Shown piece after piece: positions 18,834 through 44,651 of a stretch of 64,000 bases of DNA; within the stretch, counting starts at the first letter, position 1; each line of letters starts with the position of its first letter. A model generated the notes under the pieces. That model had not been told where the DNA came from, made no database searches, and saw nothing but the letters and a program-made list of their open reading frames with translations. Source of the stretch: Escherichia coli (GTDB taxonomy: Bacteria; Pseudomonadota; Gammaproteobacteria; Enterobacterales; Enterobacteriaceae); NCBI RefSeq assembly GCF_044324875.1, contig NZ_CP172185.1; one strand, 5' to 3'. The translations under genes were made by a program, and so were the position numbers.

Positions 18834-24385
<5,552 letters not shown>

Positions 24386-24548
24386 TTAAACGGCTTAACA
24401 AAAATCCAGTAATATGGATTAAAAAGCAGACTAAACCCCAAATATTTCTTATGTTTTACTTTAGACCTATTCACAGCGGTTATTGTGTGCAAATACGCCT
24501 CTTGTTACAACCTTAACCCCAATGACCGATTTTCGGGAGAGCGACACC

Positions 24549-25187
24549 ATGAGTTTATTTGATAAAAAGCATCTGGTTTCCCCCGCCGATGCCCTGCCTG
24601 GACGTAACACCCCGATGCCCGTAGCCACACTGCATGCGGTCAACGGTCACTCAATGACCAATGTACCTGACGGAATGGAGATTGCCATTTTTGCGATGGG
24701 TTGTTTCTGGGGTGTGGAGCGTCTGTTCTGGCAGTTACCCGGCGTTTACAGCACCGCCGCAGGCTATACCGGCGGCTAAACGCCAAATCCGACTTATCGG
24801 GAAGTGTGCTCCGGTGATACTGGTCATGCCGAAGCGGTACGCATTGTTTACGATCCTTCCGTCATCAGCTATGAGCAGTTGCTACAGGTATTTTGGGAGA
24901 ATCACGATCCCGCCCAGGGAATGCGTCAGGGCAATGACCACGGCACGCAGTATCGTTCAGCGATTTATCCGCTGACCCCAGAACAGGATGCTGCTGCTCG
25001 CGCCAGTCTGGAACGTTTTCAGGCGGCGATGCTTGCCGCCGATGACGATCGTCGCATCACCACGGAAATTGCTAACGCCACACCGTTTTATTATGCCGAA
25101 GATGACCACCAGCAATATCTGCATAAAAACCCGTATGGTTACTGTGGAATTGGCGGAATTGGCGTCTGTCTGCCGCCGGAAGCATAG
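24549..25187 (+). pseudogene. msrA: Peptide methionine sulfoxide reductase MsrA interrupted by in-frame TAA at codon 77 (24777-24779)
   Basis: Frame from ATG 24549 reads [10 protein letters not shown]...[31 protein letters not shown] then TAA, then continues in the same frame [27 protein letters not shown]... to 25187 (ORF track splits it into 24483..24779 and 24804..25187). MsrA family has a conserved Tyr at this position. Confidence 0.85.
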
Positions 25188-25231
25188 CGTTACGGGTACA
25201 AATGTAGATTGTTGATAAAGTGCTATTTGTC

Positions 25232-25332
25232 TATGCCGGATGCGGCGTAAACGCCTTGCCAGGCCTACAAAATCGTCCAAAATCAATATATTGTGGGGAC
25301 TGCGTAGGCCTGATCGGCATAGCGCATCAGCC
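25232..25332. repeat. REP/BIME cluster
   Basis: TGCCGGATGCGGCGTAAACGCCTTGCCAGGCCTACA ... TGCGTAGGCCTGATCGGCATAGCGCATCAG units after msrA. Confidence 0.85.
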
Positions 25333-25509
25333 AGTATTTCATTTATCAGCAGTCTGAATTTTAACCCTCTGGCGGCTTTACAGTACCTTACGCTATACTA
25401 GCCACTGAAAATGCCGGTTCACTTTCTTCGAATCGGCTTTCAATGTGTATTTCACACAAATTAATCAACTTCCCCTTCCGAGGATCTGGCCTGAAAGGTC
25501 GGATAAGAT

Positions 25510-26853
25510 ATGTTAAACAGTATTTTAGTCATACTCTGTTTGATCGCTGTAAGTGCGTTCTTCTCGATGTCCGAGATCTCGCTTGCCGCTTCACGCAAAA
25601 TCAAACTTAAACTGCTGGCTGATGAAGGCAATATAAATGCCCAACGCGTTCTGAATATGCAGGAAAATCCCGGCATGTTCTTTACCGTGGTCCAAATCGG
25701 TCTGAACGCAGTGGCGATTCTCGGCGGTATCGTCGGTGATGCGGCATTTTCTCCAGCTTTTCACAGCCTGTTCTCCCGCTATATGTCGGCAGAACTCTCT
25801 GAGCAACTGAGCTTTATTCTCTCTTTCTCGTTAGTGACTGGCATGTTTATCCTGTTTGCGGATTTAACCCCGAAACGCATCGGTATGATTGCGCCAGAAG
25901 CGGTGGCTTTGCGTATCATCAACCCGATGCGCTTCTGCCTGTACGTTTGCACCCCGCTGGTGTGGTTCTTCAACGGCCTGGCGAACATAATCTTCCGTAT
26001 TTTCAAACTGCCAATGGTACGTAAAGATGACATCACTTCTGATGACATCTACGCGGTAGTGGAAGCCGGTGCGCTGGCGGGCGTGTTACGTAAACAGGAA
26101 CACGAGCTGATTGAAAACGTCTTTGAGCTGGAATCCCGTACCGTTCCGTCGTCAATGACACCGCGTGAAAACGTGATTTGGTTTGATCTCCACGAAGATG
26201 AGCAAAGTCTGAAGAATAAGGTGGCGGAACATCCGCACTCTAAGTTCCTCGTCTGTAATGAAGATATTGACCACATCATCGGCTATGTCGATTCTAAAGA
26301 CCTGCTGAACCGCGTGCTGGCTAACCAAAGCCTGGCACTGAACAGCGGCGTACAAATTCGCAACACGCTGATTGTGCCGGATACGTTAACCCTTTCAGAA
26401 GCGTTGGAAAGTTTTAAAACCGCAGGTGAAGACTTCGCGGTGATCATGAACGAGTACGCGCTGGTAGTGGGGATCATCACCCTCAACGACGTGATGACCA
26501 CGCTGATGGGCGATCTGGTCGGTCAGGGGCTGGAAGAGCAGATTGTCGCCCGTGATGAGAACTCATGGCTGATTGACGGCGGCACCCCGATTGACGACGT
26601 CATGCGCGTGCTGGATATTGACGAGTTCCCGCAGTCGGGCAACTACGAAACCATCGGCGGCTTTATGATGTTTATGCTGCGTAAGATCCCGAAACGCACC
26701 GATTCGGTGAAATTCGCCGGCTACAAATTTGAAGTGGTGGATATCGATAACTACCGCATCGACCAGCTGCTGGTGACCCGAATCGACAGCAAGGCCACCG
26801 CCCTTTCGCCAAAACTGCCTGACGCTAAAGATAAAGAAGAAAGCGTCGCGTAA
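25510..26853 (+). CDS. ytfL: CNNM/CorC-family membrane protein YtfL (PaeA, polyamine exporter) with CBS pair and CorC_HlyC domain
   Basis: 447-aa ORF MLNSILVILCLIAVSAFFSMSEISLAASRKIKLKLLADEGN... (DUF21-CBS-CorC architecture). Confidence 0.94.
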   Translation: MLNSILVILCLIAVSAFFSMSEISLAASRKIKLKLLADEGNINAQRVLNMQENPGMFFTVVQIGLNAVAILGGIVGDAAFSPAFHSLFSRYMSAELSEQLSFILSFSLVTGMFILFADLTPKRIGMIAPEAVALRIINPMRFCLYVCTPLVWFFNGLANIIFRIFKLPMVRKDDITSDDIYAVVEAGALAGVLRKQEHELIENVFELESRTVPSSMTPRENVIWFDLHEDEQSLKNKVAEHPHSKFLVCNEDIDHIIGYVDSKDLLNRVLANQSLALNSGVQIRNTLIVPDTLTLSEALESFKTAGEDFAVIMNEYALVVGIITLNDVMTTLMGDLVGQGLEEQIVARDENSWLIDGGTPIDDVMRVLDIDEFPQSGNYETIGGFMMFMLRKIPKRTDSVKFAGYKFEVVDIDNYRIDQLLVTRIDSKATALSPKLPDAKDKEESVA

Positions 26854-26869
26854 CCCCCAGAAACATCAA

Positions 26870-26897
26870 CGGCTCCTGAATCAGGAGCCGTCTTATT
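26870..26897. terminator. Bidirectional terminator hairpin between ytfL and ytfK
   Basis: Perfect palindrome CGGCTCCTGAATCAGGAGCCG followed by T-rich tract. Confidence 0.6.
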
Positions 26898-26914
26898 ACT
26901 GCATAGCACTTTGG

Positions 26915-27121
26915 TTAAGCCATCTCTGTTTGCAGACGCATAACCTGACGGTTAACTTCGGACATCACTGACAAATGCAGCTTATCCTTCACTTTTGGGA
27001 TAAGAATCTTACCCTTATCAAATTCAAAAGCGCCAACGTCCTTGATGTATAACCGTCCACGGAACAGGATCTTTACGTACTTCGCCACCTGAAGTGGGTT
27101 GTACCGTTGGAAAATTTTCAT
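26915..27121 (-). CDS. ytfK: Small protein YtfK (DUF1107)
   Basis: 68-aa product [68 protein letters not shown] from ATG 27121 with GGAG RBS; ORF track extends 22 codons upstream. Confidence 0.9.
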
Positions 27122-27445
27122 TGTTATCTCCTGCTGAGTATTACGCCTGTGCGGTGCCACAATCGGCCCAACTATTATGAGGCGCAAATTTTAATGCTTA
27201 GTGACTATAGACTATCCGGGCAATGTTTCCACCGCGTATAACTTTTTTTACCTAAAGGTTACAATTATTCAGAATTATCTTTTTACCGAAGCGCGGTGTT
27301 CAGTATAAGCATTCATTTTTCATATGATTTGTGCGCTTGACCGCAAACTGGCATCACACTTGCGGGAAATTCGATAAATAGCACATATGATTAAAACTCA
27401 GACCCAAGTGGTCGGATCACCTGCATATCATAAGAAGGAAACACC

Positions 27446-28000
27446 ATGACCCTACGCAAGATTCTGGCACTCACCTGCCTGCTGTTGCCGATGATGGCTT
27501 CCGCACATCAGTTCGAAACCGGTCAGCGAGTGCCGCCGATTGGCATTACCGATCGTGGCGAGTTGGTGCTTGATAAAGATCAGTTTAGCTACAAAACCTG
27601 GAACAGCGCGCAGTTAGTGGGAAAAGTGCGAGTACTGCAACATATTGCTGGTCGCACCTCTGCAAAAGAGAAAAACGCGACGCTGATTGAAGCGATTAAA
27701 TCAGCAAAGTTACCGCACGATCGTTACCAGACCACCACCATTGTTAACACCGACGACGCAATTCCGGGTTCCGGCATGTTTGTGCGCAGCAGTCTGGAAA
27801 GTAATAAAAAGCTTTATCCCTGGTCGCAGTTTATTGTCGATAGCAATGGCGTCGCGCGCGGTGCCTGGCAGCTGGATGAAGAAAGTTCCGCTGTAGTGGT
27901 GCTGGATAAAGACGGTCGCGTGCAATGGGCCAAAGACGGGGCGCTCACACAGGAAGAGGTGCAGCAAGTGATGGACCTGCTGCAAAAGTTGCTCAAATAA
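27446..28000 (+). CDS. ytfJ: Periplasmic protein YtfJ (DUF1434)
   Basis: 184-aa ORF with signal peptide MTLRKILALTCLLLPMMASA. Confidence 0.92.
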   Translation: MTLRKILALTCLLLPMMASAHQFETGQRVPPIGITDRGELVLDKDQFSYKTWNSAQLVGKVRVLQHIAGRTSAKEKNATLIEAIKSAKLPHDRYQTTTIVNTDDAIPGSGMFVRSSLESNKKLYPWSQFIVDSNGVARGAWQLDEESSAVVVLDKDGRVQWAKDGALTQEEVQQVMDLLQKLLK

Positions 28001-28020
28001 TGGCAATAACATAAATTCTG

Positions 28021-28051
28021 CAAAATAATTTTCCCCTATCGTTATCTATGG
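28021..28051. terminator. Hairpin between convergent ytfJ and ytfI (10-bp stem TTCCCCTATC / GATAGGGGAA)
   Basis: Inverted repeat read directly; second smaller hairpin GAGTTC..GAACTC at 28061-28079. Confidence 0.5.
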
Positions 28052-28088
28052 GATAGGGGAATTAAGCCTCTGAGTTCTTACGCCGAAC

Positions 28089-29000
28089 TCATACTGGTAA
28101 CGCTAGTTGCTTTTTTTTAAACGCCTCAATGGTCGATTTATATTTCTCGCAAATCTTTTCTTCGGTAATATCACTATCTGCGGCCAGATTCGCACTTACT
28201 ATCGCATCCACTTGTTCGGCTAATTCGACTTGTTGGCAACCTGCATTAACCAGAAAATTATAAATAAGAGAGTAATCTTCATCCTTCAAAAAAACAGAGG
28301 AACCATTACGAAAACGTTCATCCCCTCCATAGATTTTAAGCGCAAAGCCCAAAGATTCTATGACTATGGCAAAATTATCATCAATTATTTTTTCGTAAAT
28401 ATACCATCCATCGCATTCTTTAATTCCACCTCCTGGAATTTGGAGGTCAAATTTACCCCGTTTTAATTTGCTTACTATATCCTCCAATAAGGCATAACCT
28501 AAAGACACGTCACCAATCGCCTGGCGAATATAACCTTTAATCCTTTCCGGTATGTCAGACTGTTTTTTCTGCAGAATATCCCGGGCATACAATCTTCTGT
28601 TTTGTTCTAACGGAAACTCGCGGTTTTTGAAATCCATGAATGAGTTATACTCATTTATTGTTATGGGAATTTCTTCGTATTCAAACCCACTGCCTCGCAA
28701 TGTCATTATATATTCGGCACCGTTATCTTTAATGCTGAAACTGATAAGAAACTTATCCATGGCGTGAACATTTTCATTTTTTGATGAAAGCACCTGATAA
28801 CTACTTTTATCAATCTGAGTTGCGCAACGAAAGAACTCCCGCAAAGTTAACAGGCTATCATAATTCGAAATCCAATCTTTTTTCTTAAATGCATGCTGGA
28901 TATTGTTAAAAAAATTGTTTGAATGTGTTTTTGTATGCGATGATTTTACGAATAACTCCACCGCACCAATAAAATTATTGTGTCTGATCCTGGGTAACAT
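28089..29000 (-). CDS. ytfI: Uncharacterized AT-rich protein YtfI
   Basis: 303-aa ORF MLPRIRHNNFIGAVELFVKSSHTKTHSNNFFNNIQHAFKKK...; markedly AT-rich by eye compared with flanking genes; position between ytfJ and cysQ as in K-12. Confidence 0.85.
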   Translation of the reverse strand: MLPRIRHNNFIGAVELFVKSSHTKTHSNNFFNNIQHAFKKKDWISNYDSLLTLREFFRCATQIDKSSYQVLSSKNENVHAMDKFLISFSIKDNGAEYIMTLRGSGFEYEEIPITINEYNSFMDFKNREFPLEQNRRLYARDILQKKQSDIPERIKGYIRQAIGDVSLGYALLEDIVSKLKRGKFDLQIPGGGIKECDGWYIYEKIIDDNFAIVIESLGFALKIYGGDERFRNGSSVFLKDEDYSLIYNFLVNAGCQQVELAEQVDAIVSANLAADSDITEEKICEKYKSTIEAFKKKQLALPV

Positions 29001-29160
29001 ATGGCTACCTTATTTTATTTGGTTATTTTATGTCGCCATTAAATATCTCATTATAGAAGTATAACTATCAAAAAACGCTCATTATTAAAATGTAACTTAT
29101 TAGCAATTGAATTTTTGCACTTTAAATACAATCTCTTTTTATTTATAACTTTTTAGGTTG

Positions 29161-29207
29161 GGAGAAATCAGGATGGCAGAATCAGGAAATACACTGTTTC
29201 TGCCATC
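29161..29207 (-). terminator. cysQ 3' hairpin (10-bp stem GATGGCAGAA / TTCTGCCATC)
   Basis: Inverted repeat immediately downstream of cysQ stop on the minus strand, followed by T-rich sequence. Confidence 0.5.
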
Positions 29208-29212
29208 TGAAT

Positions 29213-29953
29213 TTAGTAAATAGACACTCTGAATCCCGGATTCAGGAACGACTCGCGCGGAGTGTAATCCAGCGGTTTACCCTGCCAGTCGTGAACGTGC
29301 GCTCCGGCAGCTGCGGCCACAGCATGTCCAGCGGCGGTGTCCCAAATATTCGTTGGTCCGAAGCGCGGGTACAGCTGCGCCTGCCCTTCCGCCACCAGGC
29401 AGAATTTCAGCGAAGAGCCGATGGACGTGGTCTGATGTTCGCCAAGCTGTTGCAGATACTCTTTCAGCTCCGCATCTGCATGGGAACGGCTGATAACCAC
29501 CAGCGGCGGGCGCGCATCACGGACCTGAATCTGCTTGCGCACGCCGCACTCTTCTTTCCACGCTTTGCCTTCTGCCGCGCTGTACATTACGTTCATTACC
29601 GGCGCATACACCACACCTAAAATCGGTTTGCCGTGGTCGATGAGCGCAATGTTAACGGTGAATTCGCCATTGCGTTTAATAAACTCTTTAGTACCATCCA
29701 GCGGGTCTACCAGCCAGTAACGCTGCCAGTGCTGACGGACTTCCCAACCGGGAGGATCTTCTTCAGAAAGCACCGGAATATCCGGTGTCAGCGTACGTAA
29801 ACCGTCCATGATAACGGTGTGAGCGGCAATATCCGCTGCCGTTACCGGAGAATTGTCCGCTTTGCTGACGACGTCCATCGGTTTCGTCCCGTCGTAGACC
29901 TGCATAATGGCATCGCCTGCATTCCGTGCAAGCTGGCATACTTGATCTAACAT
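29213..29953 (-). CDS. cysQ: 3'(2'),5'-bisphosphate nucleotidase (PAP phosphatase)
   Basis: 246-aa [25 protein letters not shown]... with inositol monophosphatase-family motifs (WLVDPLDGT). Confidence 0.96.
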
Positions 29954-30142
29954 TTCTCCACCTCGTCTCTGTGAGCGGTGTTAACTTATTGTTTTACTTA
30001 TACCCTATCGTTAATGAATGCGCCAACTGTGATAGTGTCATCATTTTCAAAGCGTAAAATTGTGGCATTCTTCACTGTTCTATAAGTAAGACGTTTATTC
30101 TCCCTTTTCTTTCGTATTCCCGATGATAAAAGGATGTCCCTG

Positions 30143-32086
30143 ATGATTAAGTTTAGCGCAACGCTCCTGGCCACGCTGATTGCCGCCAGTGTGAATGCAG
30201 CGACGGTCGATCTGCGTATCATGGAAACCACTGATCTGCATAGCAACATGATGGATTTCGATTATTACAAAGACACCGCCACGGAAAAATTCGGACTGGT
30301 ACGTACCGCAAGCCTGATTAACGATGCCCGCAATGAAGTGAAAAACAGCGTACTGGTGGATAACGGCGATTTGATTCAGGGGAGTCCGCTTGCAGATTAC
30401 ATGTCGGCGAAAGGTTTAAAAGCAGGTGATATTCACCCGGTCTATAAGGCATTAAATACGCTGGACTATACCGTCGGCACGCTTGGCAACCACGAGTTTA
30501 ACTACGGTCTGGATTACCTGAAAAATGCGCTGGCGGGAGCGAAATTCCCTTATGTAAATGCCAACGTCATTGACGCCAGAACCAAACAGCCAATGTTTAC
30601 ACCGTATTTAATTAAAGACACCGAAGTGGTCGATAAAGACGGAAAAAAACAGACGCTGAAGATTGGCTATATTGGCGTCGTGCCGCCGCAAATCATGGGC
30701 TGGGATAAAGCTAATTTATCCGGGAAAGTGACGGTGAATGATATTACCGAAACCGTGCGCAAATACGTGCCTGAAATGCGCGAGAAAGGTGCCGATGTTG
30801 TTGTCGTTCTGGCGCATTCCGGGCTGTCTGCCGATCCGTATAAAGTGATGGCGGAAAACTCAGTTTATTACCTCAGTGAAATTCCGGGCGTTAACGCCAT
30901 TATGTTTGGCCATGCCCACGCCGTTTTCCCAGGTAAAGATTTTGCTGATATCGAAGGAGCTGATATCGCCAAAGGCACGCTGAATGGTGTTCCGGCAGTA
31001 ATGCCAGGCATGTGGGGCGATCATCTTGGTGTGGTCGACTTACAACTCAGTAATGACAGCGGTAAATGGCAGGTGACGCAGGCGAAAGCGGAAGCACGGC
31101 CGATTTACGACATCGCTAATAAAAAATCCCTCGCGGCGGAAGACAGCAAGCTGGTAGAAACACTCAAAGCCGATCACGATGCCACACGCCAGTTCGTCAG
31201 CAAGCCAATCGGTAAATCTGCCGACAATATGTATAGCTATCTGGCGCTGGTGCAGGACGATCCGACCGTGCAGGTGGTGAACAACGCGCAAAAAGCGTAT
31301 GTCGAGCATTACATTCAGGGCGATCCGGATCTGGCAAAACTGCCGGTGCTTTCAGCTGCCGCACCGTTTAAAGTTGGTGGTCGCAAAAATGACCCGGCAA
31401 GCTATGTGGAGGTGGAAAAAGGTCAGCTGACTTTCCGTAATGCCGCCGATCTTTATCTCTACCCCAATACGCTGATTGTGGTGAAAGCCAGCGGTAAAGA
31501 GGTGAAAGAGTGGCTGGAGTGCTCCGCCGGACAGTTTAACCAGATTGATCCTAACAGCACGAAACCACAGTCACTCATTAACTGGGATGGTTTCCGCACT
31601 TATAACTTTGATGTGATTGATGGTGTGAATTATCAGATTGATGTTACCCAGCCCGCCCGTTATGACGGCGAGTGCCAGATGATTAATGCCAATGCGGAAA
31701 GGATTAAGAACCTGACCTTTAACGGCAAGCCGATTGATCCGAACGCCATGTTCCTCGTTGCCACCAATAACTATCGCGCTTACGGCGGCAAATTTGCCGG
31801 TACGGGCGACAGCCATATCGCTTTTGCTTCACCGGATGAGAACCGCTCGGTGCTGGCAGCGTGGATTGCTGAAGAGTCGAAACGTGTGGGGAAAATTCAC
31901 CCGGCGGCAGATAACAACTGGCGTTTAGCACCAATAGCTGGCGATAAGAAACTGGATATCCGTTTCGAAACCTCTCCATCAGATAAAGCCGCGGCGTTTA
32001 TTAAAGAGAAAGGGCAATATCCGATGAATAAAGTCGCGACCGATGATATCGGGTTTGCGATTTATCAGGTGGATTTGAGTAAGTAA
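30143..32086 (+). CDS. cpdB: Periplasmic 2',3'-cyclic-nucleotide 2'-phosphodiesterase/3'-nucleotidase
   Basis: 647-aa product [42 protein letters not shown]... (calcineurin-like phosphoesterase + 5'-nucleotidase C domain); ORF track starts 3 codons upstream. Confidence 0.96.
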
Positions 32087-32119
32087 TACACTTCTTTTTC
32101 GGCCTGCAAATCATCAACC

Positions 32120-32200
32120 GCATCCGGCATTTATTGGCGGATGCGATGCTGGCGCATCTTATCCGCCCTACAAGTCATACACCGTAGGCCGCGCATCCTG
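32120..32200. repeat. REP element(s)
   Basis: CATCCGGCATTTATTGGCGGATGCG ... CACCGTAGGCCGCGCATCCTGCAG motifs between cpdB and ytfH. Confidence 0.75.
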
Positions 32201-32203
32201 CAG

Positions 32204-32584
32204 TTACGCCGCACGTTCATCCCGCACCGCCAACACCTCGGGCAAATTCAACTCAATCCAGTCCGCCAGTGCAGCAACCTTTTCGCTCACCTGCTCGCCC
32301 AGCGGCGTGAGGCTATATTCCACATGCGGCGGCACCACCGGATACGCGATACGGTTAAGAAAACCATCCTGCTCTAGCGCCTGTAACGACTGCGCAAGCA
32401 TCTTTTCACTCACCCCGCCCATTTTGCGCCGCAGGTCGCTAAAGCGATGAGTACCTTCGCGTAGCGCCACCAGAATCAACACCCCCCAACGGCTGGTGAC
32501 GTGTTTCAAAACCTCGCGCGACGGACACTGTTCAGCGAAGAGATTTCCCTCTTTCAGTTGTTGCGACAGGCTAACCTGACTCAT
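32204..32584 (-). CDS. ytfH: HxlR-family transcriptional regulator YtfH
   Basis: 126-aa product MSQVSLSQQLKEGNLFAEQCPSREVLKHVTSRWGVLILVALREGTHRFSDLRRKMGGVSEKMLAQSLQALEQDGFLNR... (winged helix); ATG at 32582-32584; ORF track extends 37 codons upstream. Confidence 0.92.
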   Translation of the reverse strand: MSQVSLSQQLKEGNLFAEQCPSREVLKHVTSRWGVLILVALREGTHRFSDLRRKMGGVSEKMLAQSLQALEQDGFLNRIAYPVVPPHVEYSLTPLGEQVSEKVAALADWIELNLPEVLAVRDERAA

Positions 32585-32672
32585 CTCATACTTACCTTTT
32601 TGTACGTACTTACTAAAAGTAAGTTTAGGTGTTAGCGTATTTAAACACAAGACAAAACGATGGAGACTTCCT

Positions 32673-33533
32673 ATGATCGCAATTACTGGTGCCACTGGCC
32701 AACTTGGACACTATGTTATTGAATCCTTGATGAAAACGGTTCCTGCCAGCCAAATAGTGGCTATCGTTCGTAATCCGGCAAAAGCCCAGGCACTGACAGC
32801 ACAAGGCATTACCGTGCGTCAGGCTGACTACGGCGATGAAGCCGCACTGACATCTGCACTTCAGGGAGTGGAAAAACTGCTACTGATCTCTTCCAGCGAA
32901 GTGGGGCAACGTGCCCCGCAGCATCGAAATGTTATTAATGCCGCTAAGGCGGCGGGCGTGAAATTTATCGCTTATACCAGCCTGCTACATGCTGATACCT
33001 CCCCGCTCGGCCTCGCCGATGAGCACATCGAGACGGAGAAAATGCTGGCTGATTCTGGCATTGCTTACACCTTGCTGCGCAACGGCTGGTACACCGAAAA
33101 CTATCTCGCCAGCGCCCCGGCAGCACTGGAGCACGGCGTATTTATCGGTGCCGCGGGCGATGGCAAAATTGCCTCGGCAACGCGGGCAGATTATGCGGCA
33201 GCTGCGGCGCTCGTGATTAGCGAAGCCGGTCACGAAGGCAAGGTTTACGAGCTGGCGGGCGATAGTGCCTGGACGCTGACACAGTTAGCGGCAGAGCTGA
33301 CCAAACAGAGCGGCAAACAGGTTACCTATCAAAATCTGAGCGAAGCCGATTTCGCCGCGGCACTGAAAAGCGTCGGACTGCCCGACGGACTGGCGGATAT
33401 GCTGGCGGATTCTGACGTTGGCGCATCGAAAGGCGGTCTGTTTGATGATAGCAAAACGCTGAGCAAATTGATTGGCCGCCCAACGACAACGTTAGCCGAA
33501 AGCGTAAGCCATCTTTTTAATGTTAATAACTAG
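32673..33533 (+). CDS. qorB: NAD(P)H:quinone oxidoreductase (NmrA-like SDR)
   Basis: 286-aa ORF MIAITGATGQLGHYVIESL... Rossmann GxxGxxG motif; divergent from ytfH. Confidence 0.95.
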   Translation: MIAITGATGQLGHYVIESLMKTVPASQIVAIVRNPAKAQALTAQGITVRQADYGDEAALTSALQGVEKLLLISSSEVGQRAPQHRNVINAAKAAGVKFIAYTSLLHADTSPLGLADEHIETEKMLADSGIAYTLLRNGWYTENYLASAPAALEHGVFIGAAGDGKIASATRADYAAAAALVISEAGHEGKVYELAGDSAWTLTQLAAELTKQSGKQVTYQNLSEADFAAALKSVGLPDGLADMLADSDVGASKGGLFDDSKTLSKLIGRPTTTLAESVSHLFNVNN

Positions 33534-33641
33534 TTAATTAAAGTGGCATCCTCCCGCATCCTCTCTGATAATGACGGGATGCCGGGAGCAATCATGTCTG
33601 CTTCCTGAACGTTTCTTCTGACAGACCAATGGATGCCAGTA

Positions 33642-34607
33642 ATGATTAGCGGCGTGCTGTACGCCCTGTTAGCAGGGTTGATGTGGGGGCTTATTTTTGT
33701 CGGGCCGTTGATCGTGCCGGAATACCCGGCGATGTTGCAGTCTATGGGGCGTTATCTGGCGTTAGGGTTAATTGCGCTGCCCATTGCCTGGCTGGGACGC
33801 GTGCGTCTGCGTCAGTTGGCGCGTCGCGACTGGCTTACCGCCTTGATGCTCACCATGATGGGCAACCTCATCTATTACTTCTGCCTTGCCAGTGCCATTC
33901 AACGTACTGGCGCGCCTGTTTCCACGATGATTATCGGCACCCTGCCGGTGGTGATTCCTGTCCTCGCCAATCTGCTTTATAGCCAGCGTGACGGTAAACT
34001 CGCGTGGGGGAAACTCGCCCCGGCGCTGGTTTGTATTGGCATCGGCCTGGCATGTGTAAATATTGCTGAGTTAGACCACGGACTCCCCGATTTTGACTGG
34101 GCACGTTATACCTCTGGCATCGTGCTGGCGTTAGTTTCCGTGGTCTGCTGGGCGTGGTATGCCTTGCGCAACGCCCGTTGGCTGCGGGAAAACCCAGACA
34201 AACATCCGATGATGTGGGCGACGGCGCAGGCGCTGGTCACGCTGCCGGTTTCGCTCATCGGTTATCTTGTCGCCTGTTACTGGCTGAATACGCAAACGCC
34301 GGACTTCTCCCTACCTTTTGGCCCCCGTCCGCTTGTATTTGTTAGCCTGATGATTGCGATAGCTGTGCTTTGCTCATGGGTCGGCGCACTTTGCTGGAAC
34401 GTCGCCAGCCAGCGATTACCGACCGTGATTCTCGGGCCGCTGATTGTTTTCGAAACGCTGGCAGGTTTGCTGTACACCTTTTTACTCCGCCAGCAAATGC
34501 CGCCGCTGATGACGCTAAGCGGTATCGCGCTGTTAGTGGTTGGCGTGGTCATTGCAGTCAGAGCAAAACCGGAAAAGCCTTTAACTGAATCTGTCTCAGA
34601 AAGTTGA
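33642..34607 (+). CDS. ytfF: DMT-superfamily inner membrane protein YtfF
   Basis: Polytopic ORF (EamA-like repeats); start ambiguous between ATG 33633 (ORF track, 324 aa) and ATG 33642. Confidence 0.88.
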   Translation: MISGVLYALLAGLMWGLIFVGPLIVPEYPAMLQSMGRYLALGLIALPIAWLGRVRLRQLARRDWLTALMLTMMGNLIYYFCLASAIQRTGAPVSTMIIGTLPVVIPVLANLLYSQRDGKLAWGKLAPALVCIGIGLACVNIAELDHGLPDFDWARYTSGIVLALVSVVCWAWYALRNARWLRENPDKHPMMWATAQALVTLPVSLIGYLVACYWLNTQTPDFSLPFGPRPLVFVSLMIAIAVLCSWVGALCWNVASQRLPTVILGPLIVFETLAGLLYTFLLRQQMPPLMTLSGIALLVVGVVIAVRAKPEKPLTESVSES

Positions 34608-34714
34608 CACGCTGGCAGTGAGTTAAATAAGCCTCTGCTACGTAAGGGTTATAGCATTTGCCTTAAAGATGCATTTAAAATACATCTTATATTATTAAGA
34701 ATGAGGTATCAGCT

Positions 34715-35377
34715 ATGGCTTATCGCGACCAACCTTTAGGTGAACTGGCGCTCTCTATTCCTCGCGCTTCGGCTCTGTTTCGTAAATATGATATGGATTA
34801 CTGCTGCGGCGGTAAGCAAACGCTGGCGCGTGCGGCGGCACGTAAAGAGCTGGATGTTGACGTCATTGAAGCTGAACTGGCAAAGCTTGCTGAACAACCG
34901 ATTGAGAAAGACTGGCGCAGCGCCCCGCTGGCTGAAATCATCGACCATATCATCGTGCGCTACCACGATCGCCACCGCGAGCAGCTGCCGGAGCTGATCC
35001 TGCAAGCGACTAAAGTCGAGCGCGTTCACGCCGACAAACCGAGCGTGCCAAAAGGGCTGACAAAATACCTGACCATGCTGCATGAAGAGCTTTCCAGCCA
35101 CATGATGAAAGAAGAGCAGATCCTCTTCCCGATGATCAAACAAGGCATGGGCAGCCAGGCGATGGGGCCAATCAGCGTAATGGAAAGCGAGCACGATGAA
35201 GCGGGCGAACTGCTGGAAGTGATCAAACACACTACCAATAACGTCACACCGCCGCCAGAAGCCTGCACCACCTGGAAAGCGATGTATAACGGCATTAATG
35301 AACTGATTGATGACCTGATGGAGCACATCAGCCTGGAAAATAATGTGCTGTTCCCACGCGCGCTGGCGGGTGAGTGA
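34715..35377 (+). CDS. ytfE: Iron-sulfur cluster repair di-iron protein (RIC / ScdA family)
   Basis: 220-aa [44 protein letters not shown]... with hemerythrin-like HxxxE motifs. Confidence 0.96.
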
Positions 35378-35385
35378 TTTGTTCG

Positions 35386-35418
35386 ATCAACGATCCTGAC
35401 ATGGGCAGGATCGTTGAT
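35386..35418. terminator. Bidirectional hairpin between convergent ytfE and downstream accessory gene (13-bp perfect stem ATCAACGATCCTG / CAGGATCGTTGAT, 7-nt loop)
   Basis: Inverted repeat read directly from sequence 9 bp after ytfE stop and 4 bp before the stop of ORF 35422..36906. Confidence 0.6.
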
Positions 35419-35421
35419 TAT

Positions 35422-36906
35422 TCAGTCATTCAGTGGAAATAATTCATTGTTGTAACTGGTGTACTCACCTTCAACGGTAAGCAAACTGCCGTTTTTATCA
35501 AGATGCGCCGCATCGAGTTGTCGAGTCTCATTACGCCGCTTCGCATCACGTACCAGTCCATCGCCTACGTAATAAATATAGTGGTCATCATGAGCAAAGG
35601 TATCTGATAATTGACCATTGGCGTATTTAAACCACGTCCATTGGCCTTTCAGTTCAAAATGCTCAACCGTGTCTTCATCAATAAAATACGTATAGCGATC
35701 GTCATGTGCTAAATAATTTAATGGTGTGCCATCGGGGCTTTTATACCACTGCCATTGCCCATTAATATCAAAAATAGTCACATCATCGCTCGCAATGAAA
35801 TAAACTTTATCCCCTACAATATTAACACCTTCCTGTAATTCTTGTTGCGGGTCTGGTAAATGAATGACCGACAGCGTTTTTTCGACCGCAGAAACATACT
35901 TCACCAGATAGAGCGAATCTTTATATTGCGCCACATTCTCCGTCAGCGGGCGAAAATATTCCGGATCAACATCAGGAATAGTCGCAACCCGGCAGTCATT
36001 AGCACGCCTGGAAGCATCACGCGTCAACCATGTTACTTTATCCCGCTGCAGGTCAAACGTACTCCGACAATTTTTACCGAACGCATAACGTTTCTCCCCG
36101 TCTTTATCGCGATAAATTAGCAGTGAACCGGCTATCCAGCGCACAATATGAAAGGTATCCGGATCGGCGTTGATGGCATCTCCATTCACAAAGACCTGTG
36201 ATTTAGTCCGCCAGATTGTATCCCAGGGTCCCGGATTACTTTTGCTTTGGCAGCTATTGGGGGAAAATAAAATAATTCGTCGGTCCCAGGATTTAACGCC
36301 AAGAATAGAATACCCTTGCGCACTGCCCAACCAGTGCCCCTGAAAGTAAATATTGTGACGATCTTTCAGCACATCCGCGGAATCACCTGAACCGCCGACT
36401 TGTTGCAACGAATCCATATCGACCTGCTTTTCGTCGCGATTATCATCCGTGCGTTCACCATCAAAATAGAGACTATCTTTATCGGCGGCAAAACGCCCCC
36501 ACGCGCGGAATGTTGCAACATCAACTTTCGGTGTTCCCGGCGGGTTCTGGACTATTTTCCCTGCCCATAAAATATGGCGGCCATCGGTTAACCAGTCGAA
36601 ACGCCAGCCGCCATTTGACCGATAGCCAGAGAAGGGAGCCACCCGCACAAAATCATTATTGATATCATCAGGTGAATCGTATTCACCATCAGTGCCGTTG
36701 GGTACGCGGCGAAGTTGTTTGAACTTTACCTGCGGCAAATGAATATCCGGAAAATCGATACCGTAACCGTCACTATCTTCAACGATATATTTTGTGCCTT
36801 GCCCCCACGGCTGGTAGTAAAACGCAGCATAAGGCACGCCGGAGCAGGCTATCGAAGCGGTTGAAAATAAAGCCAGTGCGAGACAAACGGGTTTAATTGG
36901 CAACAT
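35422..36906 (-). CDS. Secreted hypothetical protein with DKNYY-like repeats (paralog A), 494 aa
   Basis: Long ORF with AGGA RBS 9 nt upstream of ATG 36904-36906; N-terminal signal peptide MLPIKPVCLALALFSTASIAC; repeated D-K-x-x-Y-F/Y motifs (ADKDSLYFDG, KDRHNIYFQG, RDKDGEKRYAFG, YKDSLYLVKY, GDKVYFIASDD) and two C-terminal ~34-aa repeats (GQWQWYK...AHDDRYTYF / GQWTWFK...AHDDHYIYY). Family assignment is by motif eye-match only. Confidence 0.8.
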   Translation of the reverse strand: MLPIKPVCLALALFSTASIACSGVPYAAFYYQPWGQGTKYIVEDSDGYGIDFPDIHLPQVKFKQLRRVPNGTDGEYDSPDDINNDFVRVAPFSGYRSNGGWRFDWLTDGRHILWAGKIVQNPPGTPKVDVATFRAWGRFAADKDSLYFDGERTDDNRDEKQVDMDSLQQVGGSGDSADVLKDRHNIYFQGHWLGSAQGYSILGVKSWDRRIILFSPNSCQSKSNPGPWDTIWRTKSQVFVNGDAINADPDTFHIVRWIAGSLLIYRDKDGEKRYAFGKNCRSTFDLQRDKVTWLTRDASRRANDCRVATIPDVDPEYFRPLTENVAQYKDSLYLVKYVSAVEKTLSVIHLPDPQQELQEGVNIVGDKVYFIASDDVTIFDINGQWQWYKSPDGTPLNYLAHDDRYTYFIDEDTVEHFELKGQWTWFKYANGQLSDTFAHDDHYIYYVGDGLVRDAKRRNETRQLDAAHLDKNGSLLTVEGEYTSYNNELFPLND

Positions 36907-40786: not shown

Positions 40787-41425
40787 ATGCCCGGGCGCTT
40801 TGAACTAAAACCAACCCTGGAGAAAGTCTGGCACGCGCCGGACAATTTTCGCTTCATGGACCCGCTGCCGCCGATGCATCGTCGGGGGATCATTATTGCC
40901 GCCATTGTATTGGTGGTCGGATTTCTGCTTCCATCTGATGATACGCCCAACGCGCCAGTGGTGACGCGTGAAGCGCAGTTAGATATTCAGTCGCAATCAC
41001 AACCGCCGACAGAAGAACAGCTGCGGGCGCAGCTAGTTACGCCACAAAATGATCCTGATCAGGTGGCCCCGGTCGCTCCAGAACCTATACAGGAAGGCCA
41101 GCCAGAAGAGCAGCCGCAAACTACCCAAACGCAACCATTCCAGCCAGATAGCGGAATTGATAATCAATGGCGCTCTTACCGTGTCGAACCCGGTAAAACG
41201 ATGGCGCAGCTGTTCCGCGACCACGGACTGCCCGCTACCGATGTCTATGCAATGGCGCAGGTAGAAGGCGCGGGTAAGCCGCTGAGTAATTTGCAAAACG
41301 GGCAGATGGTGAAAATCCGCCAGAACGCCAGCGGCGTGGTGACGGGCTTAACCATTGATACGGGGAATAATCAACAGGTCCTGTTTACCCGCCAGCCGGA
41401 TGGCAGTTTTATTCGTGCGCGGTAG
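40787..41425 (+). CDS. ytfB: OapA-domain cell-division protein YtfB
   Basis: 212-aa product [48 protein letters not shown]... (membrane anchor, Pro/Gln-rich linker, OapA C-terminus). Confidence 0.92.
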
Positions 41426-41499
41426 ATGAAGGGTCAACCAAAAGCCAGCTAAGGATTGTCTCTTTGATGACCTTACGTCTGGCTTCCAGTGCCTGAGGT

Positions 41500-41720
41500 G
41501 AAACCATACTGATATGTTGACATCCTCCACGCCCTGAAGGACGTGGATCCCTGCTACGTTCAGGCTGTCGCCTAAATCATTTCGGGGGGTTCCTGCTTCA
41601 ACGAGCGGCCTGACTGCACCATCTCTCCACAGGCAAGAACGGCGTGCCCCGCCGCTAAAATGTTACGAGCGCCATTTACATCGGCGTTCGCTGTATATCC
41701 ACATGCCTGGCATCTGAATT
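41500..41720 (-). ncRNA. Predicted omega (re)RNA of TnpB, overlapping tnpB 3' end and right end of the IS; putative guide = flank just beyond RE (about 41501-41516)
   Basis: Inference from established TnpB biology (guide RNA derived from tnpB 3' end/RE); presence of RE hairpin at 41527-41546. No transcript evidence. Confidence 0.35.
41527..41546. repeat. IS right-end subterminal hairpin
   Basis: 5-bp + 2-bp stem with single mismatch and TGAA tetraloop; near-identical copy at other end of element. Confidence 0.7.
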
Positions 41721-42768
41721 TACTTTGTGACAGGCGATTTTCTTTCGCTGTATGACCACAGCACGCGCAACGCTGGCTTGTGTACGCTGGCGGAACAGCA
41801 AGCACCTGACCGCCACGCCAGAGCTGCTTGTACTCAAGCTGGCGGCGCATTTCATACCAGCCCTGATCCAGTATCGAACGGTTTAAACCTGATTTTGCCC
41901 GGACATTGCGCCCCGGCTGGCTGACCGTACCCGCTGCTGACTTTGACATGTTGCTGACCTTCAAATCCTCAATGACTATCATTGCGTGGTTTTTGCTGAC
42001 GGTCGTTGTGACTTTGTGAAGGTAGTCCCTGCGGATATTTGCGATACAGGAATGCAGTCGCTGTATTTTGCGTTTCTGCTTCTGCCAGTTATTGCTGAAT
42101 TTGACCTTGCGGCTTAACTGTCGCTGAAGTCTCGCCAGCTTCTTCTGGTTTTTCTGAAAACTGTTTACAGGCTCAAAGACTGTGCCATCTGACAGCGTGG
42201 CGAGTTTAGCCACGCCAGCATCCAGCCCGACCATTGATGCTGAAGGGTGAACCGGAGTTGATACTTCATTTTCAGTCTGAATACTGATGTACCACTTACC
42301 GCAGGACTGGCTGACAGTGACATTTTTCACAACACCCGTGACCTGACGGCTATTCCGGTAGCGCATCCAGCCAAGTTTCGGCAGAAAAATACGGCTGTTT
42401 TCCTGATCGAGCTTAACGCCCTGCGGGTAGCGGAATGCATCATTCTGTCCCCGCTTTTTGAATCGGGGAAAAGCAGCCCGCTTCTGGAAGAAGTTTTTGT
42501 AAGCCCGCTCAAGGTCTTTCAGTGACTGTTGCAATGGCTGTGAGGGCGAATCTTTAAGCCATTGCGTTTCAGTGGCGTTTTTCCACTCAACCAGCCAGGA
42601 AGCCATTTTCCCGTAAGGGATGTATTTATTACCGGCCTCATGATTCTCATTCTGACGTGCCAGAGCACGATTGAAAACGAAACGACATGCGCCTGCGAAG
42701 CGCCTCATTTCACGCTCCTGTTGACCACCGGGTCTTAACTGGAATTTAAATGCCTGTAGTCGTTTCAC
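41572..42768 (-). CDS. tnpB: TnpB (IS605 OrfB) RNA-guided endonuclease, apparently intact
   Basis: 398-aa [39 protein letters not shown]...; RuvC-I D (MVGLDAGV), RuvC-II E (MIVIEDLKV), Zn finger CACCGH...CQACG and RuvC-III D ([10 protein letters not shown]) all present. Confidence 0.92.
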
Positions 42769-42775
42769 AGGCCAA

Positions 42776-43390
42776 ATGATACTTTGGTCTGTGAGAAAAG
42801 AAACCGATATCCGGCGTGGAAGGCATTGTGTTTTCCTGATGCATGTTCACCAGGTCTTTGTCACCAAATACCGACGTCAGATTTTTGACCATGACGCGAC
42901 AGAAAAACTACGCACTTACTTTTCAAATGTATGTGCTGATTTTGAAGCTGAACTGGTTGAAATGGATGGCGAACCAGATCACGTCCATTTGTTAATTAAC
43001 TATCCTCCCAAACTGGCGATATCCAGTCTGGTAAACAGCCTCAAAGGCGTATCGGGTAGGTTACTGCGACGAGATCGACCAGATATTGCAGTCAGGTATT
43101 ACTACAAAGGCGTTTTGTGGAGTCCTGGCTATTTTGCCAGTAGCTGCGGAGGTGCGCCAATATCCGTCATCCGCCAATACATTGAACAACAGCAAACACC
43201 TGATCAGGTGGAAAACCGCGCCTTATATCCCCGCCCTGAAGGACGGGGTTTTACGGCGCACCGGATAAACCAGGCCAAGCGTATGCTGGTTGATCAAATA
43301 ATATCCCCCAAGCGCAGCAATATTAATATTCACCTGCAATGGGTCGATATCTGGCTTAAAAATATTGTGTTTCCTCCCTTCATCCAATAA
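42776..43390 (+). CDS. tnpA: IS200-type Y1 (HuH) transposase TnpA, ORF reading through the IS left end into flanking DNA
   Basis: ORF contains KYRRQIF, HuH motif HVHLLI and catalytic-Tyr region [11 protein letters not shown]...QYIEQQ; typical TnpA ends soon after, but here no stop occurs until 43388-43390, beyond the end hairpin (which encodes [10 protein letters not shown]). Confidence 0.8.
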
Positions 43391-43483
43391 GGATTCCATT
43401 AACTGCAAGTGCGCATGATTAATTTCTAAGAGACACTGTGATTTTGCATAATGCACACCTTTACTTTGGTTTTCACTATGCAC
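43223..43483 (-). pseudogene. ytfA-like ORF, 3' end replaced by IS-end sequence (possible TetR-like C-terminal fragment)
   Basis: 86-codon frame from GTG 43481-43483 ([73 protein letters not shown]...) runs into the IS hairpin ([13 protein letters not shown]). Identity with K-12 ytfA is from position and memory only. Confidence 0.5.
43239..43258. repeat. IS left-end subterminal hairpin
   Basis: CCCCGCCCTGAAGGACGGGG, same architecture as 41527-41546. Confidence 0.7.
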
Positions 43484-43832
43484 AATTTTTAAAAACCAGG
43501 GATTAGCAATATAATAATCCCAGGTAAAATCGATGATTTTTTCAATGGCTTTTTGTGGCTGGTTAACCTGCTGATTAACAAACGCACCGATACCGACAGC
43601 GTAGAATAATTACATACCGCACAACAAGAATGTATGGTGTAAGGCGTTGTCAGTCATCTCCCTCCCTGGGTGCATCGTTATATCCGTGATGAGCGATTTT
43701 TGATATTAATATCTTTCACCATCCGCTATTTTCACTACTTCAGAAAACAAACTTATTTTTATTAATATCGATTCTTTTTCTTTGAGCATTTAACTACGAT
43801 ATTTATAAAAAAATTAAACAGGCAAAAATACA

Positions 43833-44627
43833 ATGACATTACCAACCACTATTTATTCATTTCCTGCATATTCACCCCGTTTTTCGTCCACCGACAAACC
43901 AGTAAAATTAAAATTTCATCAATACGCACGCGCTACATTACTTTCAAATCGTGGAAGAGATCATAATTGCGATGGCAGACATACTGTTGAGATCCACAAA
44001 CTAGATCTCTCAGACTGGCAAGCATTCAATAAACTAGCGATGGCGTGTAATGCTTACGATGGAATAACAATGAATGGTGATAATTCTTTTGGATGGAACC
44101 ATGAGGCTACATTAGATAATATTCACGCCCAGAAATACAATAAAGCTTACGCGGGTGCGAGGTTAACCGCAGAACTGAAATATTTATTGCAAGATGTCGA
44201 ATCCTTCGAACCCAACAGTAAATACACAATACACGAGGTTGTTTTGGGTCCAGGTTATGGTACTCCAGACTATACCGGCCAAACGATAGGATACGTTGTA
44301 ACCCTTCCTGCCCAAATGCCTAATTGCTGGTCATCTGAACTACCAACAATCGATCTTTATATCGACCAACTTCGCACTGTTACAGGCGTTTCTAATGCCC
44401 TCGGATTCATCATTGCTGCATTGCTAAACGCGTATTCTGATTTACCCCATGATTTGAAAATTGGTCTGCGTTCCTTATCAAGTTCAGCAGCAATCTACTC
44501 GGGTTTGGGTTTCGAGCGAGTGCCGCAGGACCGAGACATAAGGTGCGATCATATGCATCTAACGCCAGCAAACCATCCTGAATTATGGACACAAGAGAAT
44601 GGTGAATGGATCTACTTACGAAACTAA
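43833..44627 (+). CDS. yjfZ: Uncharacterized protein YjfZ
   Basis: 264-aa ORF MTLPTTIYSFPAYSPRFSSTDKPVKLKFHQYARATLLSNRGRDHNCDGRH...; AT-rich upstream region. Confidence 0.88.
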   Translation: MTLPTTIYSFPAYSPRFSSTDKPVKLKFHQYARATLLSNRGRDHNCDGRHTVEIHKLDLSDWQAFNKLAMACNAYDGITMNGDNSFGWNHEATLDNIHAQKYNKAYAGARLTAELKYLLQDVESFEPNSKYTIHEVVLGPGYGTPDYTGQTIGYVVTLPAQMPNCWSSELPTIDLYIDQLRTVTGVSNALGFIIAALLNAYSDLPHDLKIGLRSLSSSAAIYSGLGFERVPQDRDIRCDHMHLTPANHPELWTQENGEWIYLRN

Positions 44628-44651
44628 TACCTGACGAAAAATAGAAAGCAA

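Follow-up and report, generated by a model that had tools for sequence, protein, structure and literature searches.

The window, by which we mean the whole 64,000-nucleotide stretch of DNA that was analysed, carries the E. coli gene order cycA, fklB, ytfB, then yjfZ, rplI, rpsR and priB. The gap between ytfB and yjfZ holds a 1748-bp unit that we assign, from its sequence, to IS609, a member of the IS200/IS605 family with the divergent tnpA/tnpB arrangement of the IS605 type. The initial annotation had already placed it in this family, as an element of the TnpB/omega-RNA nuclease type, and profile scores, homologue alignment and the conserved ends confirm the assignment. Its placement between ytfB and yjfZ names the right gap, but the element in fact interrupts ytfA, a TetR-family pseudogene. 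The features of the locus are given below in order of position, with the basis for each in parentheses.

41412-41516, minus strand: C-terminal fragment of the ytfA (TetR/AcrR) pseudogene (annotation and empty-site reconstruction).
41501-41516, minus strand: predicted guide flank 5'-CATATCAGTATGGTTT-3' (directly 3' of the invariant ...GTCAA; a lineage SNP lies at 41514).
41517-43264, minus strand as the top (active) strand: complete IS609 copy, 1748 bp (empty site, four insertion sites, ytfA frame).
41517-41663, minus strand: predicted omega-RNA scaffold of seven helices including the right-end hairpin (covariation), overlapping the tnpB 3' end and the right end.
41526-41547, minus strand: right-end subterminal hairpin TCCACGTCC-TTCA-GGGCGTGGA with one T.G pair (motif search and fold).
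41572-42768, minus strand: tnpB (insQ), 398 aa, GTG start (ORF listing, NCBIfam, ISDra2 structures).
42776-43390, plus strand: read-through tnpA ORF, 204 aa, which runs past the left end into what remains of ytfA (NCBIfam).
43218-43264, minus strand: left end, with hairpin CCCCGTCC-TTCA-GGGCGGGG at 43229-43248 and an outer GCGCC/GGCGC stem.
43265-43268, minus strand: TTAT next to the left end, the target and TAM tetranucleotide (read as ATAA on the plus strand).
43265-43558, minus strand: middle fragment of the ytfA pseudogene (tblastn; K-12 and 536 annotation).

We delimited the element by comparing the occupied site with K-12 MG1655, where the site is empty (TTTAT/CACATC, against TTTAT[IS]CATATC in the window), and with copies inserted elsewhere. 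The initial annotation had suggested that K-12 carries no element here and had proposed a comparison with an uninterrupted region; the MG1655 site shows that the suggestion was correct. Alignment with K-12 alone leaves an ambiguity of one nucleotide at the ends (G at 41516 or at 43264), which was settled by the other three insertion sites. The four sites compared, in ytfA, yedK, ydcO and a DUF3251 gene, are independent E. coli insertions with unrelated flanks, and all hold the 1748-bp unit, one copy being 1747 bp long through a 1-nt deletion. Read on the plus strand, every compared copy runs from TTGACATCC to TTTTACGGCGCACCGG and is always followed by ATAA next to the left end, and the sequence before the unit is unrelated. 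The layout on the minus strand is 5'-TTAT/CCGGTGCG...GGAGGATGTCAA/CATATCAG-3' or, with more of the right terminus written out, 5'-TTAT/CCGGTG...GATGTCAA/CATATCAG-3'. The interval first annotated (41517-43277, about 1.76 kb) thus starts at the exact base and ends 13 bp too late.

The comparison of the empty K-12 site with the occupied site revealed no target-site duplication, and insertion 3' of a specific tetranucleotide without duplication is as expected of an IS200/IS605 element. Deleting 41517-43264 in silico restored a continuous ytfA frame (96% identity to the E. coli 536 protein in tblastn on the reconstructed empty site), and because this frame is that of a TetR/AcrR regulator, we conclude that IS609 lies inside the ytfA pseudogene. 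In E. coli 536 this TetR/AcrR regulator is intact, and the two ytfA fragments jointly cover its residues 83-215; like K-12, the window lacks the 82 N-terminal codons.

Both ends carry the same imperfect hairpin, as the initial annotation had described. A search of all 64 kb for CCNCGCCCTGAAGGACGNGG gave exactly two occurrences, one near each end of the element (41527-41546 and 43229-43248), against an expectation of 0.06. On the minus strand, GGAT (41547-41550) stands before the right-end hairpin (DNA fold -7.7 kcal/mol, z -2.7) and TCAA (41517-41520) after it; the latter, which had been noted earlier as IS608-like, makes up the final four bases of the element. The left end, which is conserved among relatives, folds at -14.1 kcal/mol (z about -2.7), with AAAA (43249-43252) directly 5' of its hairpin on the top strand. 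The two hairpins are subterminal, lie in the same orientation and are not accompanied by terminal inverted repeats, which is the end structure of the IS200/IS605 family. They are more stable in their minus-strand form, in which T.G replaces C.A and G.T or G.U pairs become possible.

To place these ends among relatives, we used 79 related loci from a scan of one genome per species. Searching them for GGA[CT]GTCAA returned 58 distinct right ends, all of which terminate in ...GGAGGATGTCAA (one with GGAGGACGTCAA) and have unrelated flanks from the next base onward; TCAA is invariant among them and G(A/G)AT stands 5' of the right-end hairpin. At the left end, relatives are flanked by either TTAT or TTAC. 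Those with TTAT have AAAA 5' of the left-end hairpin, and those with TTAC have AAAG in four of five cases. Judged by these sequences, the pairing of TTAT with AAAA and of TTAC with AAAG matches the guide/cleavage-site rule of IS608 from Helicobacter pylori, in which GAAT reportedly lies 5' of the right hairpin and the TTAC target is said to pair with AAAG 5' of the left-end hairpin. The window element shares with IS608 a Y1/HUH TnpA with equivalent residues, subterminal imperfect hairpins on one strand, and a right end in TCAA; the tetranucleotide 5' of the right hairpin is GGAT here and GAAT in many relatives. It differs in its target (TTAT rather than TTAC, with AAAA rather than AAAG), in a distant TnpA match (E=4.6e-19), and in gene order, tnpA and tnpB being co-directional in IS608 and divergent, as in IS605, here. 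With its defined ends, TTAT target, target/guide covariation and well-supported omega-RNA structure, the locus cleanly illustrates how an IS200/IS605 element is built.

The plus-strand GC skew is negative throughout the window and the rpsF-rplI ribosomal-protein operon lies on the minus strand, which together indicate that the minus (top) strand of the element is the lagging-strand template. This is the orientation reportedly expected for IS200/IS605 elements, for which a single locus gives weak support.

The tnpB gene encodes a protein with the fold and catalytic residues of an RNA-guided nuclease. Its product scored 388.7 bits against the NCBIfam profile guided_TnpB (NF040570, cutoff 100), and residues 3-376 matched the ISDra2 TnpB structures (8BF8/8EXA/8H1J) with E=3.7e-55. 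In this alignment, the RuvC triad D183/E267/D363 falls on D191/E278/D361 of ISDra2, and the zinc-finger cysteines C334/C337/C353/C356 form two CxxC pairs, so that the D-E-D triad and the CxxC...CxxC finger of the TnpB fold are both present. These results uphold the earlier description of a 398-aa TnpB with RuvC residues and zinc finger, and the frameshifts that would have spoken against it are absent, each of the six compared E. coli copies having an open tnpB. A lineage-specific change of CAG to TAG at 41572-41574 (Q399*) removes the last four codons, giving 398 aa against 402 aa in the five other E. coli copies and in ten relatives with a translated tnpB. The truncating allele was found in 186 of 5426 genomes at 186 places, always once per genome. 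Both the lost residues and a T393P substitution lie past the structure-aligned region, which stops at residue 376, and ISDra2 TnpB itself has a disordered C-terminal tail. The TnpB of this copy is probably functional as far as its sequence can tell, and it is plausible that TnpB and its omega RNA form a potentially active programmable nuclease.

A guide-RNA scaffold is predicted at the 3' end of tnpB and the right end, as in ISDra2, whose TnpB-omega-RNA system was reportedly described in 2021. The predicted scaffold takes in the right end together with the final ~150 nt of tnpB, and we obtained an RNAalifold structure over the final ~147 nt from a subset of 31 distinct IS609-like sequences. 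We used this subset in place of the heterogeneous set of 58 right ends, on which RNAalifold gave a poorer structure, as two right-end subfamilies differ by insertions. Across the 31 relatives, 97.9% of the cells of the 44 pairs are paired, with compensatory changes in 17 of the 44; the right-end hairpin forms helix 7 and contributes five compensatory pairs. None of 500 shuffles was as good, and sliding the partners by 1-3 columns reduced pairing to 41-50%. Several pairs are G.U and exist on the minus strand only, which argues for a role as a strand-specific RNA or ssDNA. The variants of the window copy keep the pairing: positions 41624/41604 form an A-U pair here and A.C in the O157 copy, and the nonsense change at 41574 turns a scaffold C-G pair into U.G. 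ISDra2 differs in its TAM (TTGAT rather than TTAT), and the two scaffolds are unrelated in nucleotide sequence.

The guide would be read from the flank directly beyond the right end, and we infer its length and use from the ISDra2 paradigm. Within the window, the sole exact match of the predicted guide is the flank itself, and no other target with fewer than three mismatches was found in these 64 kb. An Rfam E-value search of 41000-44000 returned nothing at gathering score; sub-threshold matches to HgcC, sot0042 and RAGATH-18 fell on the omega-RNA stretch and strand, and we regard them as positional hints, not as membership. In a consensus promoter and terminator scan of the element, promoters were no better than in shuffles, and no convincing tnpB or tnpA promoter was seen.

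The divergent tnpA ORF starts at 42776, 7 bp from the start of tnpB. Codons 1-143 (42776-43204) encode the Y1/HUH transposase, and the ORF scored 143.7 bits against the NCBIfam profile transpos_IS200 (NF033573, cutoff 55). TnpA residues H69/H71, Y135 and Q139 align to H64/H66, Y127 and Q131 of IS608, so that the HUH motif and catalytic tyrosine of the family are in place, as the initial annotation had it; the ORF is, however, not intact. The stop codon has been lost through a change of TAG to CAG at 43205-43207 (codon 144), which adds 61 residues. In relatives, TnpA is 138-143 aa long, compared with 204 aa here, and the stop follows TPG or TPS both in O157 and in relatives from other genera with an intact tnpA ORF. 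The copy therefore lacks the intact transposase ORF of normal length that an autonomous IS would have. In addition, residue 26, which aligns to I21 of IS608, is glutamine. All homologues examined have a hydrophobic residue at this position: solved homologues show I, F or L, and leucine is found both in the five other E. coli copies and in those relatives whose tnpA can be read. Because the stop codon is lost and L26Q falls in the first beta-strand, TnpA of this copy is probably defective, and because of that the element is most likely stranded. A 100%-identical tnpA sequence in strain ECONIH1 is called a pseudogene by PGAP. The locus warns that a tnpA ORF may look intact and yet be a stop-loss pseudogene. 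On the other hand, TnpA still has its HUH motif, Tyr135 and Q139, and a longer C terminus does not necessarily make the protein inactive.

We next consider how widespread the element is. The copies most similar to it are themselves labelled IS609. Elements labelled IS609 or InsQ/TnpB with 97-100% nucleotide identity occur in thousands of E. coli genomes, and copies whose tnpA is labelled IS609 by NCBI are 97-98% identical, with the same length and termini. O157:H7 has a copy at the same position in ytfA; over 4 kb the two are 97.4% identical, and the O157:H7 copy is annotated as "IS200/IS605-like element IS609 family transposase" and "RNA-guided endonuclease InsQ/TnpB". On this near-identity to labelled copies, including that at the same site in O157:H7, we identify the element as IS609. 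Unit, ends, hairpins, TTAT target and divergent gene order are the same; compared with the O157 copy, the window copy has L26Q and no tnpA stop (TAG in O157) and a TnpB of 398 rather than 402 aa, and compared with other IS609 copies it has a few scaffold SNPs that preserve pairing. K-12 has a remnant of IS609 (an ISfinder name), insP/insQ or ydcM, adjoining ydcO, and O157:H7 an intact copy.

We surveyed 5426 complete E. coli genomes by megablast, using the interval as first reported (41517-43277) as query. IS609-like matches were present in 5015 of the 5426 (~92%), with a median of two places per genome. A 4-kb region including the flanks was fully covered in 1699 genomes, from which we conclude that ~31% of E. 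coli carry IS609 at this very site. On these numbers, the element is not unusual for the core-genome context that the initial annotation named. The same sites, in ytfA, ydcO and yedK, are occupied through much of E. coli. The Q26 allele was found in 188 of the 5426 genomes at 194 places (median one per genome), and the window haplotype in ~3.4%. ECONIH1 carries a sequence 100% identical to the window element, and a strain with the whole 4-kb region identical has a single IS609 place, so that no second IS609 tnpA would be available there to act in trans. The window copy is a polymorphism that is common and inherited vertically. Both the element and the TnpB/omega-RNA mechanism have been described before, and what lies at this locus is known, not new; as a discovery it carries little weight, since this IS is familiar and its site commonly polymorphic. 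The insertion (31% of E. coli) and the window haplotype (3.4%) may serve as phylogenetic markers.

The two genes of the element have evolved under different regimes. Among the six E. coli copies, pN/pS is 0.2-0.4 for tnpB, with one pair at 0.72, and scatters around 1 for tnpA; these values rest on small counts, yet the two genes differ consistently. In comparisons with other genera, which also took in loci without tnpA, tnpB dN/dS is 0.04-0.20. The other E. coli tnpA copies have a TGA stop at codon 96 or a frameshift, and an allele with the TAG stop is found in 1411 genomes. Across E. coli copies, these comparisons point to purifying selection on tnpB and drift in tnpA. This contrast between a conserved tnpB and a decaying tnpA is the only aspect of the locus that might merit population-scale follow-up.

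Taken together, we consider it very likely that the locus holds a vertically inherited copy of the known IS609 whose TnpA is probably defective, leaving the element stranded, and whose tnpB and omega-RNA scaffold look functional. Judging from its sequence, this copy has probably lost its own movement and kept a functional TnpB. The initial annotation had leaned instead towards a copy that is fully autonomous and active now; in that case the 204-aa TnpA would still excise and insert it, and TnpB would provide homing. We regard this as unlikely. Such activity would be compatible with the intact H69/H71, Tyr135 and Q139, with the absence of the codon-96 stop seen in other E. coli copies, and with the intact end hairpins, TCAA end and AAAA guide tetranucleotide, but it is at odds with L26Q at a site that is I, L or F in solved homologues and L in the other copies and readable relatives, with the 61 residues added by stop loss, and with the neutral evolution of tnpA among E. 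coli copies. The alleles of this lineage also occur almost always (Q26, 194 places in 188 genomes) or always (Q399*, 186 in 186) as single copies, a pattern of vertical inheritance and not of recent transposition. Given the stop loss, L26Q, the pseudogene call and the one IS609 place in the identical strain, the unit is probably not an autonomous transposon.

That both genes are non-functional, with tnpB open merely for lack of time, is a reading to which we give still less credence. The decayed tnpA, the premature stop Q399* and lineage-specific substitutions in tnpB, and the promoter scan that detected no promoter in the element would suit it; yet tnpB is open in six E. coli copies (pN/pS 0.2-0.4), whereas tnpA, a third as long, has acquired a premature stop, a frameshift and the loss of a stop codon. 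Moreover, the truncation removes only four residues outside the structure-aligned region, and compensatory or wobble changes preserve RNA pairings in the window copy itself. The least probable alternative is that the host has co-opted TnpB and keeps the fixed chromosomal copies for an RNA-guided function apart from transposition: the largely species-wide occupation of the ytfA, ydcO and yedK sites, the conserved tnpB beside a decayed tnpA, and intact solo tnpB copies in Citrobacter and Serratia fit it, but the nuclease triad is intact, unlike in the known domesticated TldR proteins, the guide is merely the adjacent flank, conservation could equally stem from occasional TnpA acting in trans (from the TAG-stop allele of 1411 genomes) or from recent activity, and we know of no host phenotype.

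The reading that we favour, of a stranded copy with a functional TnpB, suggests the following sequence of events. The element would have inserted directly 3' of TTAT in the ytfA pseudogene by single-strand "peel-and-paste" transposition. Transcription past the TCAA end would copy the guide from the flank (CATATCAGTATGG...), and the cognate TnpB target of the predicted guide would be TTAT-CATATCAGTATGGTTT. Upon excision, the rejoined donor site (TTAT followed by CATATCAG...) would be cut by TnpB-omega-RNA, as in the ISDra2 and Geobacillus models, and repair from the sister chromosome would put the element back in place and promote its retention. We refer to this scheme, which was worked out on elements of those two kinds, as the homing model.

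Should TnpA be dead, TnpB would have no task here under the homing model, and the constraint on tnpB is then not fully explained. One might speculate that tnpB is under purifying selection at fixed sites despite the decay of tnpA either through regular trans-mobilisation by a rare intact TnpA or through a role of TnpB-omega-RNA independent of transposition, a proposal that, on the sequences compared, we think has a small chance of being right. Were it true, roles independent of transposition could include guarding the element's own locus or acting on other TTAT-flanked targets.

IS609 is a long-known named IS that is mentioned in the genome-survey literature. For functional work on the E. coli IS609/insQ TnpB, our literature search found those survey mentions and one purification and trans-cleavage screen, and nothing more. 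The proteins purified and screened for trans-cleavage in that study (PMC12781874, NAR 2026) included an IS609-type TnpB, for which TTAT was used as the TAM (Table S2); it did not perform best, and it is 86% identical to the TnpB of the window.

The tnpB gene, which encodes the RuvC RNA-guided nuclease, is open in all six E. coli copies of IS609 that were compared and has a pN/pS of 0.2-0.4, as determined by comparing window 41572-43204 with the other copies (L003-L007). In the same comparison, the pN/pS of the transposase gene tnpA is approximately 1, and its lesions across the six copies are of three kinds: premature stop, frameshift and loss of the stop codon. According to the homing model, TnpB and its omega RNA would cut the rejoined donor site after excision, so that IS609 is restored by repair. 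This model does not readily account for tnpB being constrained where TnpA is not functional.

The third base of the flank predicted to serve as the omega-RNA guide, window position 41514, is a lineage-specific A where K-12 and O157 carry G. The predicted guide still matches its own donor joint because it is copied from the flank; it would, with A at 41514, be mismatched to the empty site of other strains. Three Rfam families, HgcC (RF00062), sot0042 (RF02656) and RAGATH-18 (RF03064), gave sub-threshold matches, all of which fell on the predicted omega-RNA scaffold (window 41504-41687, minus strand). These families may be kin of TnpB guide RNAs.

At the left end of relatives, AAAG lies 5' of the hairpin where the flank is TTAC, and AAAA where it is TTAT (L018, L020, L022 and L049 compared with window 43249-43268); the sole exception is L009, which combines TTAC with AAAA. 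This natural covariation is consistent with the DNA-guide rule of IS608. An open reading frame also spans this end:

43223-43483, minus strand, 86-aa ORF, a ytfA fragment fused to the IS left end, listed as "hypothetical protein" in the ECONIH1 strain annotation

E. coli 536 (L008) has an undisrupted gene for a 215-aa TetR regulator and, after it, genes for a 3-ketoacyl-ACP reductase and a sugar-phosphate isomerase, in place of which the window (43265-44630) and K-12 carry a 5'-truncated ytfA and yjfZ. This difference in gene content is a separate replacement polymorphism adjoining IS609.

Outside E. coli, a related locus of Photorhabdus bodei (L061, 2902-3091) has two 3'-end changes in common with the window: CCCACC has become CCCCCC, and a CAG codon has become TAG, which creates the early tnpB stop. 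The match reflects either parallel change or an old common polymorphism. IS609-like tnpB genes of enterobacterial type (83-87% amino acid identity) were also found on tiny contigs of two actinobacterial assemblies, Streptomyces mutabilis (L021, 2057 bp) and Herbiconiux daphne (L062, 672 bp), and probably represent contamination rather than horizontal transfer.

Elsewhere in the window, GC content is 0.48-0.49 at approximately 24000-36000, lower than the 0.51-0.54 of the remainder, and this stretch may be an island.
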